NCBI GenBank assembly: GCA_021513695.1
Contig: CP084166.1
Span: 672,001-736,000 of the forward strand
Source of the DNA: Candidatus Heimdallarchaeum aukensis
GTDB lineage: Archaea > Asgardarchaeota > Heimdallarchaeia > Heimdallarchaeales > Heimdallarchaeaceae
Reading direction: 5' to 3'
Length of the DNA: 64,000 nucleotides
Below are positions 12,333 through 22,640 of the stretch, piece after piece (position 1 is the stretch's first letter; every line of letters begins with the position of its first letter). The notes below the pieces were generated by a model. That model did not search any database, was not told the DNA's origin, and was given only the letters and a program-made list of their open reading frames with translations. The translations under genes and the position numbers were made by a program.

Positions 12333-12448
12333 CTTCTACTTTTTTTCAATTTTTAACAGTAAAAATGCTGTGCGTATCATTTCTTTCTTTGAAAAACTTT
12401 TGAATTCAAGAACAACTAAGAAAAATCAGTCCAAAATAATCAACATTG

Positions 12449-12477: not shown

Positions 12478-13563
12478 ATGAAAATTAATCGTATTTACAA
12501 GAGAGATTGTATTGAAGGATTAAAGCAACTTCAAGAAAATTCAGTGGATTTAATATTTGCAGATCCACCTTATAATCTACAATTGCGTAACGAACTTTAT
12601 CGCCCTGATCAATCCAAAGTAGATGCGGTTAATGACAAATGGGATAGATTCTATTCTTTTGAAGAATATGACAATTTCTCTTTAAAATGGCTGAAAGAAT
12701 GCAGACGTGTATTGAAACCCACAGGCTCTATATGGGTAATAGGGACTTATCATAATATTTTCAGGATAGGTAAAATTATGCAAGATTTAGGTTTTTGGAT
12801 ACTAAACGACATAATTTGGGTAAAAACAAATCCTATGCCCAATTTTAAAGGAACAAGGTTCAATAACGCACATGAGACACTTATTTGGGCTGCTAAAGAA
12901 AAAAATGCAAAACAAACTTTTCATTACAAATCAATGAAGATTATGAATGATAATAAACAAATGCGAAGCGATTGGTATTTACCTATTTGTATTGGTAATG
13001 AAAGGTTAAAAAATAATGGAAAGAAGGTTCATTCTACTCAGAAACCTGAATCTCTCCTCTACCGTATAATTTTATCTTCTTCCAATGTTGGAGATCTAGT
13101 TTTAGACCCTTTTATGGGTACAGGAACAACTGCTGCTGTTGCTAAAAAACTGCGAAGGAATTACATCGGATTTGAGATTGATGATTATTACATTAGTGAA
13201 GCAGAAAAAAGAATTGCTAAAGTTTTACCTTTATCCGAAGATCTTTTAGATTACAAAATTGAAAAAAAACCTCCTAAAGTATCCTTTGGTATGCTAATTG
13301 AGAACAAATACATCAATCCGGGGGATTTTCTTTATTCCAGAGATTTAAAACACAAAGCAATTATTAAGGCTAATGCTTCAATTGAATATGAAGGGAAAGT
13401 GGGTTCTATTCATTCTATTAGTGCTTTTATTTTAGGAAAAAAAGCAAATAACGGTTGGGAATTCTGGTACTTAAAGAATAGCTCTGGTGAATTGGTATCT
13501 ATTGATTCACTAAGAAAAAAATTCGCAGTGAATGAATGGGGTGAAGAATGGAATGTCATCTAA
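12478..13563 (+). CDS. DNA methyltransferase, beta-class N6-adenine/N4-cytosine (DPPY before FxGxG), with approx 110-aa C-terminal extension
   Basis: Motif IV FADPPYNL near the N-terminus and motif I FMGTGTT downstream (beta permutation), as in the CcrM/M.RsrI group. C-terminal extra domain with GWEFWY. Confidence 0.85.
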   Translation: MKINRIYKRDCIEGLKQLQENSVDLIFADPPYNLQLRNELYRPDQSKVDAVNDKWDRFYSFEEYDNFSLKWLKECRRVLKPTGSIWVIGTYHNIFRIGKIMQDLGFWILNDIIWVKTNPMPNFKGTRFNNAHETLIWAAKEKNAKQTFHYKSMKIMNDNKQMRSDWYLPICIGNERLKNNGKKVHSTQKPESLLYRIILSSSNVGDLVLDPFMGTGTTAAVAKKLRRNYIGFEIDDYYISEAEKRIAKVLPLSEDLLDYKIEKKPPKVSFGMLIENKYINPGDFLYSRDLKHKAIIKANASIEYEGKVGSIHSISAFILGKKANNGWEFWYLKNSSGELVSIDSLRKKFAVNEWGEEWNVI

Positions 13564-13627
13564 AAAGAATAACCTTCAACTCACATTAAATGGAAAAGGT
13601 TATCATAGATAAGATCCATTTAGCTTT

Positions 13628-14938
13628 ATGAAGTTATCCAAGGACAAAGTCAACTATCTTATTTTTGAAGGTGGTGGAGGAAAAGGAGTTACTTATATTG
13701 GGGCTTTAGAAGCTCTTGAAGAATTAGGTATTCTCAGATTTACTGAAAAAAATATAGGAGAAAAGGTTGTTACTCATCTTGCTCCAAATTGCTTGAAAGG
13801 AGTAGCTGGAACTTCAGTTGGTTCACTTTTTGCTTTACTTGTATCTTTGGGCTACAACTCACAAGAAATAAGAGAATTATTAAAAAGCAACTTAACTGAC
13901 GAGTTTCTAGATACTATCGAATTTGGTTTGATTCAATCAATTTATAGCCAGCTTACTGAACAATCTTTTGTTAAAGACCCTCAACTAGAAATATCTACAA
14001 ATTTCGTTGAGAATAAATGGTCTTCTTTTCTTCAAAAACAAGAGAAATCTTTCAAAGATTTGTTTGCTTACCCTCTTAAAATGATCAAGCAAGCAAATTA
14101 TTATATCCTCTCAATGTTCATCAAATTTCTTCTTTATTATGAATCAAGAAAAATAAAGAATGAAAAACCATCTAACGAAACAGAAACTACATTTATCCCT
14201 ACATTACGAGACTTTGCGCAGTCAAAAACTCTAAAAAATGCTGTAGATAAAATTTTGGATAAACCAGCCGATGCTCTTAATAGTCTTAAATATGAATTTG
14301 GTTTTTTCCTTGGCAATGGGGCAAGAGAAGTTATAGATAGGTTAATTGAAGAAAGAACAGGAGTGAAAAACTGTACTTTCAATCAATTTTATGAAATTTT
14401 AGGAATTGATCTTGTTATTACTTCTTTTGATTTACAGACAAAACAAGTTGAATACTTAAGAAAAGATTCTAAATGGAAAAACCTTTGTGTGGCAGATGCA
14501 GTAAGAATGTCAATTTCTATTCCATTAGTCTTCAAACCTGTTGTTATTAACATGAAAGACGAGTTCATTCTTCCAATTACAGATGATGTTTCTTATGCTC
14601 ATTATTTCATTGATGGTGGAGCAGCAAACAATTTTCCCCTTCATGTTTTTGATGATAGAGAAGACAAACTAAATCCCTACGTTCTAGGATTTACTCTATC
14701 GTATAAAAGACAATATAATCCTTTTATTGAAGAAATTACTTTCTTTGAATATTTAGAAGATGTCTTCCTTTCAGTTCTTAAACAGACAACAAATTTACAA
14801 TTCAAAAAGAAAGAAGAACAAGAACAAGTGATAGAACTTGACCCAGAGTACATAAAAGTACTTGACTTTTCTTTTGATGAGATACCAGAAAAAACAATAC
14901 AAAAAGCAAAGAAGAAAACACTAGAATATTTCAAATGA
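13628..14938 (+). CDS. patatin-like phospholipase
   Basis: Oxyanion hole FEGGGGKGVTYIGAL, nucleophile elbow GTSVGS (GxSxG), and catalytic Asp in IDGGAANNFPL (DGG). There is a long insertion between GxSxG and DGG. Confidence 0.75.
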   Translation: MKLSKDKVNYLIFEGGGGKGVTYIGALEALEELGILRFTEKNIGEKVVTHLAPNCLKGVAGTSVGSLFALLVSLGYNSQEIRELLKSNLTDEFLDTIEFGLIQSIYSQLTEQSFVKDPQLEISTNFVENKWSSFLQKQEKSFKDLFAYPLKMIKQANYYILSMFIKFLLYYESRKIKNEKPSNETETTFIPTLRDFAQSKTLKNAVDKILDKPADALNSLKYEFGFFLGNGAREVIDRLIEERTGVKNCTFNQFYEILGIDLVITSFDLQTKQVEYLRKDSKWKNLCVADAVRMSISIPLVFKPVVINMKDEFILPITDDVSYAHYFIDGGAANNFPLHVFDDREDKLNPYVLGFTLSYKRQYNPFIEEITFFEYLEDVFLSVLKQTTNLQFKKKEEQEQVIELDPEYIKVLDFSFDEIPEKTIQKAKKKTLEYFK

Positions 14939-15032
14939 TAATAATTTATTTGTTTCATCCAATGCAAAAATTTAGTAATCATTAAGAAAACTAACAGAAA
15001 TGTTTTTTTATCTTAAATAGATTTTTTTTTGA

Positions 15033-16100
15033 ATGATTAGAGAATTAAACGTTGAGAACTTCAAATCAATAGAAAATCTTTATCTTAAATGCTCAAAAAT
15101 TAACATCTTTATTGGAGAACCAAACGTAGGAAAATCAAATATTATTGAGTCTTTAGGATTGTTTTCATCTATTTTATTTCATGAAAATTCTTCAAATAGA
15201 AATGAAGCTATTAACAAAGAGTTTATACGTTATAACAATTTTATTGACCTATTTCATAACAGTAATCTAAGAAAAAAAATCAAAGTATCTACAGATAAAT
15301 ACCAAATTGAAATTAGAGCGGAAGAAAATAATTTCTATATTTCTGTTTATCGAATTCAACTAAGTTCAGAAGAAAAAGATAAAAACTTTAGTAAAAGAAT
15401 CATTAGATCAGAAAATATCTTACAAGTAGAAGCAATAGCAAATTCACCTGGAATATATTCTTGGAACTTTAAGACTAATTTTAACGATTTTAAGAAAGAA
15501 AAGAATTTCCCAAAGATAATGTATTATAAAAATATGGAAACAGAAAAATTCGTTTCTCTAAACTTTGATTTTTTGAATCCTCCATCAGGAAATAACCTTC
15601 TAACTATATTGCAAACAAATACAGATCTTTACAAAAAAATCAATGAGATACTTTTTTCTTTCAATCTCAAATTAATGCTGAGAGAAGTAGAAAAGACTAT
15701 CGAACTTGTAAGAGATATAGAAGGAAAATTAATTGCTATTCCCTTTAAGCTAGTTGCTGAATCTTTCCATCAACTTTTCCTTTTACTAAGTGCGATGAAT
15801 ACATGTAAAGATTCTATTATCTGTTTGGAAGAACCAGAGACACATCTATTCCCAAAATATACAAAGTTAATAGCTGAACTCATAGCTAAAAATAAAAACA
15901 ATAATCAGTATTTTATTTCAACACACAACCCCTATTTTTTGATTTCATTAATAGAAAAAGCAAAAAAAGAAGATTTAAGTATTTTTGCAGTAAGTTTTCA
16001 GAATAATCATACAAAAGTTTCAAAAATACAAGAAAATGAGATAAGAGAACTCTTAGAAGGAGAAGATCCATTTTTTAACATCAATAAGTACTTCGAGTAG
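15033..16100 (+). CDS. AAA_21/ABC-type ATPase of the OLD/AbiL/PARIS-AriA kind
   Basis: Walker A GEPNVGKSN, Walker B ICLEEPETHLFP (the EEPE..LHP-type motif typical of AAA_21), H-loop ISTHNPYF. The stop TAG abuts the ATG of the next gene. Confidence 0.7.
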   Translation: MIRELNVENFKSIENLYLKCSKINIFIGEPNVGKSNIIESLGLFSSILFHENSSNRNEAINKEFIRYNNFIDLFHNSNLRKKIKVSTDKYQIEIRAEENNFYISVYRIQLSSEEKDKNFSKRIIRSENILQVEAIANSPGIYSWNFKTNFNDFKKEKNFPKIMYYKNMETEKFVSLNFDFLNPPSGNNLLTILQTNTDLYKKINEILFSFNLKLMLREVEKTIELVRDIEGKLIAIPFKLVAESFHQLFLLLSAMNTCKDSIICLEEPETHLFPKYTKLIAELIAKNKNNNQYFISTHNPYFLISLIEKAKKEDLSIFAVSFQNNHTKVSKIQENEIRELLEGEDPFFNINKYFE

Positions 16101-16597
16101 ATGTCAATGATACTAGTTGAATGTTATGCTGATGAAAGATTAGTGAGAACACTTCTACCAGAATTATCTAAAAAAGAATATTCTCATGCAGGTAACAAAA
16201 CAGGGGTAATCAAAAGGTTAATTAAAATAAAAAATGGAAAAAAATACATTGGATTAGTTGATAGAGATCCCCACTCTAATCCTCCTGGTTTTTTCCACAA
16301 CTTTACTCTTCTGGAAAATCATGAAGAATCAAAAATATCTATTTACTTTTTCAAAAAAAAAACAATGCTAAACTTGTCGTTATTGAACCTGAACTTGAAG
16401 GATGGATTGTAAACATCGCTCATTCGATTCACTTTAAACTCAGAGATTATGGTTTACCTGAAGATCCAGATAAATTGCATGAGGTTATCAACGAAAAAAG
16501 AAACCTAGATAATTTCTCAAAGCTTGTTTCAGACTTACTACAAAAAAGTGTTCACCTTTCTAAATTAAAAAAAATTTTATCAAAAAGTATAGATTAA
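16101..16597 (+). CDS. Toprim-like small protein (DUF4276/OLD-family Toprim-like), interrupted by a -1 frameshift in an A10 tract
   Basis: The N-terminal ORF (16101-16412) has ILVECYADE (Toprim Glu) and GLVDRDPHS (DxD). After the A10 run at 16353-16362 the frame continues as NNAKLVVIEPELEGWIVNIAHSIHFKLRDYGLPEDPDKLHEVINEKRNLDNFSKLVSDLLQKSVHLSKLKKILSKSID, ending at 16597. One additional A would give a single approx 165-aa protein. Confidence 0.55.
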
Positions 16598-16613
16598 AAA
16601 AGAAAAAATTCAT

Positions 16614-17099
16614 TTAATCTATAACAGCTTTCTTGTTTTTCTTACCACTCATATATGAAATATTGATCTTTCCTATTTTTACATTTATTATTGATTTTTC
16701 AGTGAGATACTCCTTGTTCTTTTTTTCTGGTTCTTTTTCAAACTTCTCAATTAAAAGCTCTAAAGCTTTCTTTTTTTCTTCAAATTCCTCAATAAAGGTT
16801 ACGTTACTTTGGAAATGTACTGAAGCGTAATTATGGTCACATTCTCCTTCTAGGTAGCCAAAGTCAAGCATTGCTTCTCCCCAGATTAAATTGTTTTTTT
16901 CTAAAATTTCTATCTTTTTTCCTTTTTTAGCACAATGGAAGTAAATACACTTTTGATCATTATCAAGAACAAAGTTTAGGGTTACTAAATAGGGAATATT
17001 ATTGTTACACATCGCAATTGTAACATAGAGAGCTCTGTTTAAAATTCTCAATTGTTCTTCTTCATCTATAGCTTTTTCCTTTCTTCTTATTTCTCTCAA
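16614..17099 (-). CDS. pyridoxamine 5'-phosphate oxidase-like FMN-binding split-barrel protein
   Basis: Start MREIRRKEKAIDEEEQLRILNRALYVTIAM...YLVTLNFV...IYFHCAKKGKK matches the PNPOx-like/NimA pattern. Confidence 0.5.
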   Translation of the reverse strand: MREIRRKEKAIDEEEQLRILNRALYVTIAMCNNNIPYLVTLNFVLDNDQKCIYFHCAKKGKKIEILEKNNLIWGEAMLDFGYLEGECDHNYASVHFQSNVTFIEEFEEKKKALELLIEKFEKEPEKKNKEYLTEKSIINVKIGKINISYMSGKKNKKAVID

Positions 17100-18150: not shown

Positions 18151-19623
18151 TTATTCTTCTAGATCTATGGATATCTTTTCTTTGTAAACCTTGCTTTGGA
18201 TTATTTTAACTAATTGATATACACAGAATATACCGATTGCAGTTAAAATTAGAACGATTCCAACATCTGTAAGATACATATACCATGCTGACATATCTGG
18301 CCATTTAAGCATATAGAACATAACAAATCCGAAAGCAAAGGTGCTTCCAATAGTTATTCCCCAACCTAATATTTCTCTTATCCACTTCTTTTTTATCCTA
18401 ATTGAATCAATGTACATCAATAAAATCATCATTGCAGATAAAGTTGCTAAAACGTGCCAATGACCAACATTATAAGCATATTCTAGTTCAAAAGGTCCAG
18501 CTCTCACTTCATCAAGATTCAAGGCAATGTATATTCCAGGAACAGTAACAACTAGATTAACCCATATGAATAAGAAATACAATCCTGAAAGCACAGAATC
18601 TTTGAAGATTGCGAGAAATTTCTTGTAAAAGGGAGCTTCATCATACTTTTCTCCTAGAACTTTTTTAGACACTTTTCTAAAACCATCAACAATCAACACA
18701 ATAGAAGCTAAAATTAAAATCGATACTCCAACATTTATTATCATGTGTGCAGATTCAACATCAGCTGGAACTAACCACCCACCAGCATCAGTAATAAGTA
18801 TACCTGGTATTATAGCTATTTGAGCAACAAGATACCATTTTCCTTTTGTTTTTGTAAATTTAAAGGCTATAAGTAAAATAGCAGCATCAATTAAAGCCAA
18901 CATAATATGCAAGTGTGCAACTATCATTCTAACATACACTGCTTCAGGAGTAAAACCACTATGATCGATTCTCACTCTTGCTTCAGCTATAAATGCTTCA
19001 AAATTGAGTGCTGAATCTGGATTTCCAAAATTAGCACCCACAATAGCACCAAGTGTAGCTGTAACTATTAAAGATAAACCTACAAGAACTAAATTCAAAT
19101 TTTCTAGATTAATCTTTCCAATTATTGGCCCTTCTTTACTCTCAGGAAAACTCTTTGTAGGCCATACTCCAACAACAAAAGCCATTCCTGAGTACCACAC
19201 TAAGCTTAATCCTACCACAAAAAGACCATGTAAAATCATATTTTCTTGGAAAATATATGCATAAGTTAATCCGCTAACACTTGTAAGCATCGAACCGTAA
19301 AAAAGAGGCCATTTTACATGTGATTCAGCTCTTTTTCTTATTGGAAACAAGTCTAGAATAAAGAATACAACAGCTGCAAGGAAAGGCATAGCTATAGAAT
19401 GGTAAAGCATAATTATTCTTCCTACTCTTGTTTCTTCAGATAGATCAATATTAATTAAGGAAAAACCTAATATTTTCTCAACAGGTTCAGAAAAGGAACC
19501 CAAGAAAAGTATTACTAAAATCAGGTAAGCAATTATAAACGTTATAAGACCAGTATATGTTCCAAACCCATAATTGAAAATATTTTTTATTCTTAATGAC
19601 AGATTTTCTTTTGTCTCTGACAT
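18151..19623 (-). CDS. polytopic membrane protein with conserved intramembrane histidines (function unknown)
   Basis: 490 aa, more than 12 predicted TM helices. His residues lie within helices (HSIAMPF, VAHLHIML, GHWHVLATL). 17 nt upstream of the UbiA gene on the same strand. Confidence 0.4.
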   Translation of the reverse strand: MSETKENLSLRIKNIFNYGFGTYTGLITFIIAYLILVILFLGSFSEPVEKILGFSLINIDLSEETRVGRIIMLYHSIAMPFLAAVVFFILDLFPIRKRAESHVKWPLFYGSMLTSVSGLTYAYIFQENMILHGLFVVGLSLVWYSGMAFVVGVWPTKSFPESKEGPIIGKINLENLNLVLVGLSLIVTATLGAIVGANFGNPDSALNFEAFIAEARVRIDHSGFTPEAVYVRMIVAHLHIMLALIDAAILLIAFKFTKTKGKWYLVAQIAIIPGILITDAGGWLVPADVESAHMIINVGVSILILASIVLIVDGFRKVSKKVLGEKYDEAPFYKKFLAIFKDSVLSGLYFLFIWVNLVVTVPGIYIALNLDEVRAGPFELEYAYNVGHWHVLATLSAMMILLMYIDSIRIKKKWIREILGWGITIGSTFAFGFVMFYMLKWPDMSAWYMYLTDVGIVLILTAIGIFCVYQLVKIIQSKVYKEKISIDLEE

Positions 19624-19852: not shown

Positions 19853-20698
19853 ATGAAAAAAGAAAATCTTGATTTACAACTAACTAATCTTTTTTTAGAA
19901 CTAGAAAAGAAAGTAGATGAGTTTAATAAAGAAACAATAGATAGTAAAGAGATTTTAACATATTTTAAAAAATATTATTTCGAATTTTACACTTCTTTCT
20001 CTTCTAAATTTTCTTACAAAAAACTCAAAGCCAAGAAAGAAAAATTGAGAATGAATACTACTTTCACAAGAGGAGAAAAGAAGTATCTTGACTCGTTATC
20101 AATGTTAAATCAATGTCTTATTAAAATAATTTCAAAAAACCAACAAAAAATTGTCACTTTACAATATTTTGACCCAAAAATAGAATCATTAGAAAAACTA
20201 ACAGAGAACTTTGCCACGCAGAAAGAAGAATCAAATGAGGTAATATCTGTTTTAAGAACTATAACGGATTGGTTTCTCAAAAATAGAGAATATTTCAATT
20301 CATTAAATTCAGAAAAAACAGAGCTAATAATTAGGAAATTACTCTCGACATCCAATATTCTTTCAAAAGTAAGTACCCAGATAGACCTCCAATTAGAGAG
20401 AATAAAATTCCAAGACTATTTAGAGAACCTTAAAAGCAGAAGAGAAGAAATACTGAAAAAAATCATTTATGAGCGAGAGAAAATTCCTCTGCAAGAACTT
20501 TCTCCTCTTTTAGAATTCAATGATGTATTAGAACTTGAAAGATGGATATTGCATTTACCTACTAAACTTTTCAAAATTGATGATGAAATAGTTATTATCA
20601 ATAAAGATGAGCAAGATTCTGACATTGTCTCTGCTATTTCAATGTTACTTGATAAATTCCAAGAGTATGAAGAATTAGGATTAGGTAAGAAGATTTAG
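19853..20698 (+). CDS. hypothetical alpha-helical/coiled-coil protein
   Basis: 281 aa, Lys/Glu-rich, no recognised motif. The stop is immediately followed by the start of the LRR gene. Confidence 0.4.
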   Translation: MKKENLDLQLTNLFLELEKKVDEFNKETIDSKEILTYFKKYYFEFYTSFSSKFSYKKLKAKKEKLRMNTTFTRGEKKYLDSLSMLNQCLIKIISKNQQKIVTLQYFDPKIESLEKLTENFATQKEESNEVISVLRTITDWFLKNREYFNSLNSEKTELIIRKLLSTSNILSKVSTQIDLQLERIKFQDYLENLKSRREEILKKIIYEREKIPLQELSPLLEFNDVLELERWILHLPTKLFKIDDEIVIINKDEQDSDIVSAISMLLDKFQEYEELGLGKKI

Positions 20699-21637
20699 GT
20701 GATAGAGATGAAAATCAAACTTAACACTATAAAAGGAGAAAAAGAAATATCTCTGAAAAAAAATCAGCATATAATTGATCTTTCGAATATGAATCTTTTA
20801 ACTATAAATTTAGATTTTTTGGAAGAATTACCAAATGTTGAAGCAATAAACCTGTCAAATAACAGTTTATCCAGGTTAGATTTAACCCCAATAGAAAACT
20901 GTTCTAACTTATCTTCTCTACGTTTATCTAATAATAATTTAGTCAAAATTAGACTAGAACCGCTAAGAAATTGTCCCAATCTCGAGATATTAGATTTATC
21001 AAACAATCAGCTTACAGAAATCGATTTATCTCCTATTATATCTTGTACTATGATCAAATCTCTTAATCTATCTTTCAATAAGTTAGAGTCTATAGATCTT
21101 TCTCCTCTTTCTCTTTTCCCTAATCTACGAACGCTTAATATTTCCAATAATAGACTTACCTTCGTCAACTTAAAAAAGATAGTTTTCTGCATTGCACTCA
21201 AAGAGCTAGATATTTCAAACAATAATTTCAGAACTTTAGATTTAACTCCAATTTTTGGTTTTAGAAATTTGGTTCGTTTATACTTATCTGAAAATGAAAA
21301 AAAAGTAGCTGACTGGGATGTTTCCTACTTAAAATATCAACAATTGTCAAGTGGTTTAAGATATTATTTTCAAGAGATTAAAAAACAAAACCTGAAAGTT
21401 CAAAGAAATGATATTTTCAAGAAAGTACTAGAAAAATACATATCAATCAGGCTTTCAAAACTAGCCATATTTCTCGGATTCGATGAATTAATAGATTTAG
21501 AAAATTGGATTTTGGGTTTAAATTTGAATAATGTCACCATAAAAGGGAATTATTTGCTGATAGATCAATCAGTTTATGTTGACATAGATAAGGAAATGAA
21601 TAAATTAATGCAAAGTTTTGACGGGTTAAATAGATAA
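20699..21637 (+). CDS. leucine-rich repeat (LRR) protein
   Basis: About eight tandem 22-23-aa repeats of the form LxxLDLSNNxLTxIDLSPIxxCxxL, plus an approx 100-aa C-terminal non-LRR region. Confidence 0.7.
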   Translation: MIEMKIKLNTIKGEKEISLKKNQHIIDLSNMNLLTINLDFLEELPNVEAINLSNNSLSRLDLTPIENCSNLSSLRLSNNNLVKIRLEPLRNCPNLEILDLSNNQLTEIDLSPIISCTMIKSLNLSFNKLESIDLSPLSLFPNLRTLNISNNRLTFVNLKKIVFCIALKELDISNNNFRTLDLTPIFGFRNLVRLYLSENEKKVADWDVSYLKYQQLSSGLRYYFQEIKKQNLKVQRNDIFKKVLEKYISIRLSKLAIFLGFDELIDLENWILGLNLNNVTIKGNYLLIDQSVYVDIDKEMNKLMQSFDGLNR

Positions 21638-22371: not shown

Positions 22372-22640
22372 TGATTTACTTTTTTACGTAAAGTTTTTCG
22401 CACTCTGTCTTGCAAGAGAGAAAACTAAAGGAAGTTTAATCTCTTGAACTCAACCAAGCCATACAATGCCATGAAGGGGTTGAGACAGACATCATACACG
22501 AAACGTGGGAATCATAAAGAAGAATAGAAAGTTTTTCTTTCTTTTCTTCACTCCACGAGAGACAAAAAAAAGAATTACTCCTATAATAGAGAAGGAGTTA
22601 CTTTCCTTTTTGTCTACTGGGACTGCAACCAATGGCTGAG
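22372..22640 (-). ncRNA. putative omega-RNA (reRNA) region at the right end of the TnpB element
   Basis: In IS200/IS605 TnpB elements the guide RNA overlaps the 3' end of tnpB and the right end. The region is GC-richer and structured-looking. No direct evidence of transcription. Confidence 0.25.

Follow-up and report, generated by a model that had tools for sequence, protein, structure and literature searches.

The window analysed here, a stretch of 64,000 nucleotides from the Asgard archaeon Candidatus Heimdallarchaeum aukensis (GenBank assembly GCA_021513695.1, contig CP084166.1, positions 672,001 to 736,000 of the forward strand, numbered from its first letter), contains four neighbouring genes that encode a DNA methyltransferase (MTase), a patatin-like phospholipase, an ABC ATPase and a small protein with the hallmarks of a Toprim domain. 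The original prediction, made from the sequence alone, had taken them for a four-gene cluster of the kind found in anti-phage defence islands, set between housekeeping genes. The four co-directional open reading frames (ORFs) are all present within the interval that it had indicated (12478-16600), and so are the housekeeping flanks, with tldD/pmbA upstream and a PNPOx-like gene and the UbiA prenyltransferase gene downstream (Table 1). Comparison with related genomes shows, however, that the unit comprises two genes, the ATPase and the small Toprim-like protein, the latter interrupted in this genome by a frameshift in a run of adenines, and that the MTase and the patatin are independent neighbours.

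Table 1. Positions of the genes and other features discussed in the text.
Feature	Position	Strand	Remarks
MTase gene	12478-13563	+	361 aa; N6_N4_Mtase (E=7e-70) and C-terminal RAMA (Pfam)
Patatin gene	13628-14938	+	436 aa; Patatin PF01734 (E=3e-22)
ABC ATPase gene, AAA_15/AAA_21 (OLD-ABC) type	15033-16100	+	355 aa
Mini-Toprim partner gene	16107-16598	+	162 aa when intact; frameshifted in the window
Small ORF as read, frame 1	16101/16107-16412	+	103/101 aa; holds E7 and D54xD56
Poly-A tract (A10) causing the frameshift	16353-16362	+	DNA alignment of the window, L087-L090 and L001/L002
Left edge of the strain-variable segment	12333-12355	no strand	blastn of L091 against the window
MTase-patatin spacer with inverted repeat	13564-13627
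Sites of deletions (comparison with L088, L001 and L090)	14097-14136, 14693-14738, 14720-14806, 16792-16866, 18598-18667
Membrane protein gene	18151-19623		490 aa
ORF of 281 aa and leucine-rich-repeat protein gene	19853-21637		281 and 312 aa

Conservation of the ATPase-Toprim pair

The ATPase stop codon is followed immediately by the first ATG (16101) of the small ORF, as had been noted, and comparison with relatives indicates that the real start of the small gene is the second ATG, at 16107. A word-indexed search returned 838 homologues of the ATPase at E<=1e-5, mostly archaeal proteins of 310-355 aa, and a pattern scan in which each GTDB species was represented by a single genome (185,579 species genomes) found at least 498 relatives; the neighbourhoods of the best 80 of these loci were analysed, 78 of which were informative for the small partner. 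These 80 loci are spread over many phyla of both domains, the sources among archaea including Methanosarcinales, Syntrophoarchaeum, Bathyarchaeia, Thermococcaceae, Thermoplasmata, Korarchaeia-like Thermoproteota, Jordarchaeia, Baldrarchaeum, Archaeoglobaceae and Nitrososphaeria, and those among bacteria Chloroflexota, Planctomycetota, Bacteroidota, Elusimicrobia, Nitrospirota and Spirochaetota. A small homologue of ~150-165 aa lies directly downstream on the same strand in 73 of the 78 informative loci (tblastn and a family hidden Markov model, HMM), usually overlapping the ATPase stop by 4 bp. Clustering of the neighbours (within 4-5 genes) recovered the ATPase from 79 loci and, at position +1, the small protein from 66, and there was no conserved third gene, every other neighbour family occurring in five loci or fewer.

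The small protein itself belongs to a large family. When 1.84 billion representatives were searched exhaustively with an HMM, 1,582 members were identified at E<=1e-3 (1,181 at E<=1e-10), that is, about 1,580 clusters at 50% identity. The best 150 of the 1,582 measure ~126-280 aa, mostly stand-alone proteins of 150-175 aa, and none of those 150 is fused to an ATPase or long enough to be so. Two pairs illustrate how the module changes surroundings: a Heimdall relative with an ATPase 55% identical to ours carries a pair of 355 and 161 aa amid unrelated genes that have no family match, and in Pyrococcus abyssi (L128, 6001-7382) a 312-aa ATPase (P0065) and a 148-aa partner, overlapping by 4 bp, sit between pdxS/pdxT and a molybdopterin oxidoreductase. 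The pair family moves horizontally among archaea and bacteria. The MTase and patatin genes match the mean G+C content of the genome, and the ATPase gene, at 26.1%, falls within the lowest ~6% of 1-kb windows; this low value is weak evidence of recent transfer.

Both genes of the pair are under purifying selection between the window and a 92% identical strain (L001), the ratio of non-synonymous to synonymous substitution rates (dN/dS) being 0.16 in the ATPase gene and 0.32 in its small partner. In seven other loci (L031, L032, L040, L047, L059, L070 and L078), the small gene is frameshifted, stop-bearing or reduced to a remnant beside an intact ATPase ORF, an asymmetry that would be expected if the Toprim protein were a costly or toxic effector. 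The coupled ATPase and Toprim architecture that had been compared to split OLD, PARIS and AbiL systems is thus supported by the pairing in 73 of 78 loci, and the arrangement of the genes argues for a genuine, translationally coupled and self-contained two-gene unit.

Predicted properties of the two proteins

The ATPase matches both AAA_15 (E=1e-14) and AAA_21 (E=9e-13) above the Pfam thresholds. It contains a Walker A motif (GEPNVGKSN), a Walker B motif (LEEPE, the EEPE type of AAA_21 that had been recognised in the original prediction) and an H-loop (STHNP), and in 33 homologues there is no variation in Walker A, in Walker B with its catalytic Glu or in the H-loop. Its structural model, with a predicted local distance difference test score (pLDDT) of 91.8, is that of an ABC head devoid of a coiled coil, in which a beta-rich insert (residues ~83-165) separates the Walker A lobe from the signature/Walker B lobe and occupies the place of the SMC/Rad50 coiled coil. 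Motifs and head fold together place the protein among the ABC ATPases of the AAA_15/AAA_21, OLD-ABC clade. Among its structural matches, the listed figures are 19.7 for an SMC head, 18.7 for Rad50, 17.1 for GajA, 16.0 for both the Retron Eco8 OLD protein (24% identity) and the Retron Ec83 ATPase, 15.3 for Thermus scotoductus OLD (TsOLD), 15.1 for RecF, 14.9 for AriA and 14.0 for PtuA. The PADLOC models for AbiLi, NsnB, HEC-01A, PDC-M31A, ATPase-Toprim_I-B and AriA match it evenly (E from 1e-14 to 1e-20) and those for GajA somewhat more weakly (E from 3e-13 to 4.5e-11), a spread which reads as generic similarity at the level of motifs.

The small ORF contains the sequences ILVECYADE and GLVDRDPHS, which had been interpreted as the Glu and the DxD of a Toprim domain. 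The check that had been proposed, a comparison of the frame-repaired 165-aa protein with the DUF4276, DUF4435 and OLD Toprim profiles, gave nothing above threshold; no Pfam family was matched at E<=10, these three (Toprim_Old for the last) and RloB included. When 57 relatives were scanned singly, DUF4435 was found in one, AriB in one and the PADLOC mad4 model in four, and DUF4276, RloB and Toprim_Old (PF20469) in none. The weak matches of our protein (AriB, E=2.7e-6; mad4, E=3e-4; NCBIfam MAD4, E=0.02) all align its N-terminal E...DxD region in register, and a match to DUF4435 (21.7 bits, E 1.9e-4, cutoff 27), in register over this region too, was obtained with the 103-aa fragment only and disappeared with the full-length protein. 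A profile of the family recovered only spurious matches (CopM, IF-3) among PDB sequences. The small protein escapes current sequence models because it is too diverged.

The family alignment nevertheless reveals a distinctive set of residues, with E7, D56, P97, E100 and W102 invariant and C8, D11, H29, D54 and P57 nearly so. An AlphaFold2 model of an intact close homologue (P0121; pLDDT 93.7, predicted template modelling score 0.87) places the Glu after beta1 and the DxD after beta3; next come a beta-hairpin insert, beta4 with the PxxExW helix behind it and, at the C-terminus, a bundle of helices. It displays the three-layer alpha/beta fold, with these positions of Glu and DxD, that characterises the Toprim superfamily. 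The figures listed for its structural matches are 9.9 for Thermus scotoductus OLD, 8.7 for the C-terminal region of Burkholderia OLD, 8.0 for GajA, 7.4 for Pyrococcus horikoshii PH0156, 6.6 for AriB and 6.2 for Retron Ec67; generic Rossmann-like and CheY-like folds make up the remainder of the list. We conclude that the small protein is a minimal OLD-type Toprim domain with a helical tail and an E/DxD/E acidic set.

The neighbouring methyltransferase and patatin

The MTase carries DPPY and FxGxG motifs and is a CcrM/HinfI-like enzyme of the beta class, with N6-adenine (or N4-C) as its predicted target. The NCBIfam CcrM model matches it over the full length at 546 bits, below the equivalog cutoff of 830 bits; PADLOC scores it about equally as a type II MTase (MTase_II) and as an orphan MTase, and its closest phage homologues are only ~37% identical. 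No cognate endonuclease gene, which would define a type II restriction-modification system, lies beside it: the adjoining genes are pmbA and the patatin, and the nearby unknown ORFs have no match to a restriction endonuclease or to a PADLOC model, although an endonuclease of novel fold would escape such a search. The MTase is probably an orphan. In the patatin, the GGGxxG, GTSVG and DGG motifs are intact and there is an insert of ~150 aa. Its similarity to the lipase effectors of CBASS is weak and limited to the N-terminus (CBASS_lipase, 22 bits against a cutoff of 200), and its neighbourhood contains no gene for a CBASS cyclase (CD-NTase), so that neither the CapV-type lipase nor the cyclase expected of a CBASS system is found.

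The neighbourhood comparison separated what had been proposed as one cluster: the ATPase and Toprim genes travel together in related genomes, and the four genes do not. Within 6 kb on either side of the 80 related loci, there is no homologue of the MTase or of the patatin save one partial MTase match, and the two genes accompany the pair only in strains at least 92% identical to the window. A strain that is 91% identical (L091) matches the window through pmbA to 12355 and continues with an unrelated, convergent ORF (L091, 1597-2263) in place of the MTase. The pair is intact in the 92% strain (L001/L002), beside a patatin gene with a frame-breaking deletion of 85 bp, and the patatin is also disrupted by deletion in L088. 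A search for an empty site with PmbA in metagenomes showed that relatives keep tldD-pmbA and that their downstream sequence diverges; no clean empty site, with PNPOx/UbiA directly after pmbA, was found. Since the small protein accompanies the ATPase in 73 of 78 loci and the MTase and the patatin are absent elsewhere, the unit consists of two genes, not four. We regard the MTase and the patatin as independent accessory genes in one strain-variable segment whose left edge lies at 12355.

A new composite defence system made of all four genes, either MADS-like (self-marking by methylation, with the ATPase and Toprim proteins) or with the patatin acting as a membrane effector, can be set against this arrangement. 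The genes are co-directional and closely spaced, all four are present in strains 99.5-99.9% identical to the window, and the left edge of the variable segment falls right before the MTase. The methylation-associated defence system MADS also offers a parallel, as Mad3 and Mad4 are an ATPase and a small (DUF4276) Toprim protein in an eight-gene system, and the window has an MTase nearby, by chance. However, the similarity of the ATPase to MAD3 (E 5e-11) is confined to the N-terminal 80 aa and reaches 42.5 bits against a cutoff of 420, that of the small protein to MAD4 14.9 bits against a cutoff of 160, and DUF4276 was not detected in any of the 57 small-protein members. The genes mad1, mad2 and mad5 to mad8 are absent from the neighbourhood, mad2 is not among the top matches of the MTase, and this CcrM-like enzyme is unlinked to the pair in other genomes. 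The spacing is also uneven: the MTase, the patatin and the ATPase are separated by 64 and 94 bp, each spacer with its own AT-rich, TATA-like sequence, as against 0-6 bp inside the pair. Together with the other neighbours of the pair in the 55% identical Heimdall relative, the MTase-free segment of L091 and the patatin genes broken beside it in L001 and L088, this leaves the four-gene system largely refuted and, in our judgement, highly improbable.

In the MTase-patatin spacer, a perfect inverted repeat of 8 bp, ATAACCTT...(19 nt)...AAGGTTAT, could be a terminator-like or regulatory hairpin.

Comparison with known systems

The pair was not expected to map cleanly onto a named system, and the comparisons bear this out. 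There is a general resemblance to the OLD family, represented here by class 1 P2 Old and Thermus scotoductus OLD (PDB 6p74) and by the C-terminal region of the class 2 Burkholderia pseudomallei OLD (6nk8), in which an AAA_15/21 ABC ATPase is joined to a Toprim domain whose metal site is made of Glu, DxD (and Glu) and after which comes a helical region. OLD proteins, however, are single polypeptides of ~500-600 aa, whereas the pair consists of genes for proteins of 355 and 162 aa that are separate in all 73 paired loci. Neither our small protein nor its 57 relatives match the OLD Toprim profile (PF20469), the PADLOC Old model matches the ATPase at its N-terminus only, and the ATPase has the beta-rich insert in place of the dimerisation and coiled-coil elements of OLD.

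PARIS shares the split, two-gene layout, and the ATPase matches AriA profiles at E~1e-14. Yet AriA is a protein of ~55 kDa whose coiled-coil inserts build a hexamer, and AriB is one of 35 kDa with a dimerisation domain, as compared with 41 and 19 kDa for the proteins of the pair; DUF4435 or AriB is matched at E<=0.01 by one of the 57 small-protein relatives, and neither a DUF4435 effector above threshold nor inserts of the AriA IS1/IS2 coiled-coil type are present here. Likewise, AbiLi is the best PADLOC match of the ATPase, over its full length (E 2.6e-20, and 1e-23 for its L003 orthologue), and AbiL also has a two-gene layout, but these E-values are at the level of generic ABC motifs, and the RloB-like (PF13707) AbiLii partner that would complete an AbiL system has no counterpart among the 57 small-partner members. 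No MAD3 or MAD4 score at equivalog level accompanied by the other mad genes was found, as described above.

An architectural analogue is HEC-01, a pair of an ABC ATPase (HEC-01A) and a TOPRIM protein (HEC-01B) that was nominated as a defence candidate from its embedding in Hma systems (Payne et al., 2024 preprint, 10.1101/2024.01.29.577857). Our pair family shares this context in three loci (L009, 3283-10009; L034; L049), in which it lies between HmaB (methylase) and HmaC (ATPase) and which come from Syntrophoarchaeum, a Methanosarcinales metagenome-assembled genome and an unclassified bacterium. The HEC-01A models match the ATPase partially and generically (E ~1e-18 to 1e-11), no better than AbiLi, AriA or NsnB, and no small protein, Hma-embedded ones included, matches HEC-01B, with the proviso that the library's holding of HEC-01B models is unconfirmed. 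On these comparisons with profile models, the pair family appears to be an analogue or distant sister of HEC-01 rather than a demonstrable member. It is, in any case, an unnamed, minimal split OLD-like family that extends a well-known theme and does not break it.

The poly-A tract and the frameshift

The frameshift that the original prediction had inferred in the small gene is real and lies in the A10 run, the sole A/T run of at least 10 in the 64-kb window. Past the tract, the -1 frame reads KLVVIEPELEGWI... to the stop at 16598 and encodes P97, E100, W102 and the C-terminal helical bundle. The frame-1 product is devoid of beta4, of these three invariant residues and of the helical tail, and the effector would therefore be inactive as encoded. 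In the closest relatives of the window (L087 to L090), the ATPase protein is identical and the small gene differs in tract length only. The tract is A8 in L089 (JGI 3300033148), where the small gene is in frame and encodes the intact 162 aa, A9 in L088 (JGI 3300033141) and L090 (JGI 3300033156), and A10 in L087 (Logan SRR15988954) as in the window, with the gene out of frame in all of these A9 and A10 copies. The Logan contig and the window share 100% identity over 13.5 kb, and the contig therefore probably derives from the same data set. In the 92% strain (L001/L002), the tract is interrupted (AGAGAAAA) and the gene is in frame. Of the 30 homopolymer runs of at least 7 in the shared ~10 kb, among them a T9 and several of A8, this tract is the only one to alter in run length; in L089, the A8 run at 22564 has two inserted bases (AAAAAAGAAA). 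Judging from these alleles, the window copy is an apparent OFF allele, in which A8 has expanded to A10.

Three readings of the tract are possible: a hypermutable ON/OFF switch or slippage-dependent expression, pseudogenisation followed by drift, and assembly error. The last two, in which the small gene is a decaying pseudogene or the frameshift an artefact and the poly-A variation has no biological meaning, are together a possibility to be reckoned with, though on the unlikely side. The closest strains have A9 or A10, neither of which is in frame, as would be expected from neutral drift once an initial slip had inactivated the gene, the A10 Logan contig is probably from the same data set as the window, and the comparison assemblies contain unexplained deletions of 44-85 bp. 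Against this, the gene is, the tract aside, 100% identical among the A8, A9 and A10 alleles, the change of length is restricted to this one tract, and three tract lengths occur in assemblies from four samples. A more ambitious claim, that the pair is a distinct, unnamed minimal OLD-like immune system of archaea (including Asgard archaea and Pyrococcus) and bacteria and that its toxic effector is phase-switched by the A8/A9/A10 variation, we consider unlikely as a whole; if it were true, an Asgard archaeon would control an immune nuclease through a contingency locus. In the literature, we found no earlier description of this ATPase-Toprim pair in Asgard archaea and no report of homopolymer phase variation in archaeal defence genes.

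A putative gated nuclease

In PARIS, the Toprim protein AriB is kept sequestered by the ATPase AriA, which releases it on sensing a phage protein, and AriB then cuts tRNA (PMC11464382, PMC12409363, PMC10568477). By analogy, our pair probably serves in defence as a toxic nuclease gated by its ATPase. As in OLD, Gabija and PARIS, the ATPase could act as an ATP-dependent sensor or gate that keeps a metal-dependent Toprim nuclease inactive; a cue derived from an invader would lead the ATPase to release or activate the nuclease, which would then cut DNA or tRNA, and the outcome could be growth arrest or abortive infection. In the window genome, production of the intact protein would depend entirely on slippage at the tract, during transcription or translation, to restore the frame. 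Taken as a whole, the explanation that we favour, with moderate confidence, is that of a compact OLD-type ATPase and a minimal Toprim nuclease forming a self-contained, coupled module which is OFF here, the MTase and the patatin being independent of it.

Several observations weigh against this explanation. The Toprim similarity of the small protein is clear in structure, but the protein falls below the curated thresholds of every Toprim sequence profile, and a Foldseek search with it against the PDB was not significant, the best match being GajA at E=0.07. A grouping of the ATPase with housekeeping ABC/SMC proteins had been named as a refutation of the original prediction; by sequence, the ATPase belongs with AAA_15/21, although its top structural matches are the heads of SMC and Rad50, not OLD. 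HEC-01, the architectural analogue, did not protect against the phages used in its assays (10.1101/2024.01.29.577857). The flanks of the pair in most relatives are housekeeping genes (TrpA, EngA, FeoB, ExbD, polysaccharide synthases) or unknown genes, and defence-related flanks (HmaB/HmaC, BrxH-like helicases, DUF1156 MTase/DUF499, HNH, DUF4145) are few; the defence-island character attributed to the locus is not borne out, here or in most relatives. A search of IMG/VR found distant ABC ATPases only and no members of the pair family, and sequenced plasmids gave seven weak matches to the ATPase and none to the small protein. Finally, the differences in poly-A length could be assembly or sequencing errors, given that the same assemblies show odd 44-85-bp deletions.

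The same distribution could suggest a selfish addiction module of the toxin-antitoxin (TA) type, with a Toprim toxin, an ATPase that neutralises it and no immune role. The tight two-gene operon, its patchy distribution and its variable, often housekeeping contexts would suit such an element, as would the repeated loss of the putative toxin gene with retention of the ATPase, and the Pfam label of AAA_21 is a putative AbiEii/type IV TA component. But plasmids and viral contigs, on which addiction modules are common, did not yield the pair, an ATP-hydrolysing partner of ~320-355 aa is far more elaborate than typical antitoxins, all characterised systems that combine an ABC ATPase with a Toprim protein are immune systems (PMC11464382, PMC10568477), and the pair is found embedded within Hma systems. 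We consider an addiction module distinctly unlikely.

A housekeeping role in DNA repair or recombination, comparable to that of RecF and RecR or of a miniature Rad50-like complex, is less probable still. One database source labels a homologue 'recombination protein F', and the flanks in the window and in P. abyssi are housekeeping genes. A core factor, however, would hardly be so patchy and horizontally transferred, with at least 498 matches scattered sporadically among 185,579 species genomes of many phyla of both domains, no conserved synteny, absence from the corresponding site of relatives with a PmbA of 60-78% identity, and a Toprim gene that is often pseudogenised. The SMC_N match of the ATPase is below threshold (26 bits, cutoff 40), and RecR is not among the 60 listed structural neighbours of the small protein.

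The combination of an ABC ATPase with a Toprim domain, in OLD, Gabija, retron-OLD and PARIS, is a major theme of prokaryotic immunity, and the large multi-domain proteins of these systems make their regulation hard to study. At about 41 and 19 kDa, the pair is the smallest split version seen in this analysis, and the pair of the cultured P. abyssi is a possible structural and biochemical model. There is no Pfam, PADLOC or NCBIfam model for the effector, and current defence-finding tools therefore miss the family. The strain variation between A8, A9 and A10, together with the repeated loss of the effector elsewhere, may illustrate the cost of carrying such nucleases.

Other features of the window

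The deletions listed in Table 1, of 44-85 bp and with 2-4 bp of microhomology at their junctions, were found in assemblies 92-99.9% identical to the window (L088, L001 and L090). They affect the patatin gene, the PNPOx-like gene and the gene of the 490-aa membrane protein, and may be either real microdiversity or assembly artefacts. The latter protein, predicted to be multi-pass, has no Pfam match; its gene adjoins that of the UbiA prenyltransferase and is present in all close strains. Further downstream, a 312-aa leucine-rich-repeat protein (LRR_8, E=3e-23) begins 1 base after an ORF of 281 aa without a family match; neither has a PADLOC match, and both are kept in near-identical strains.

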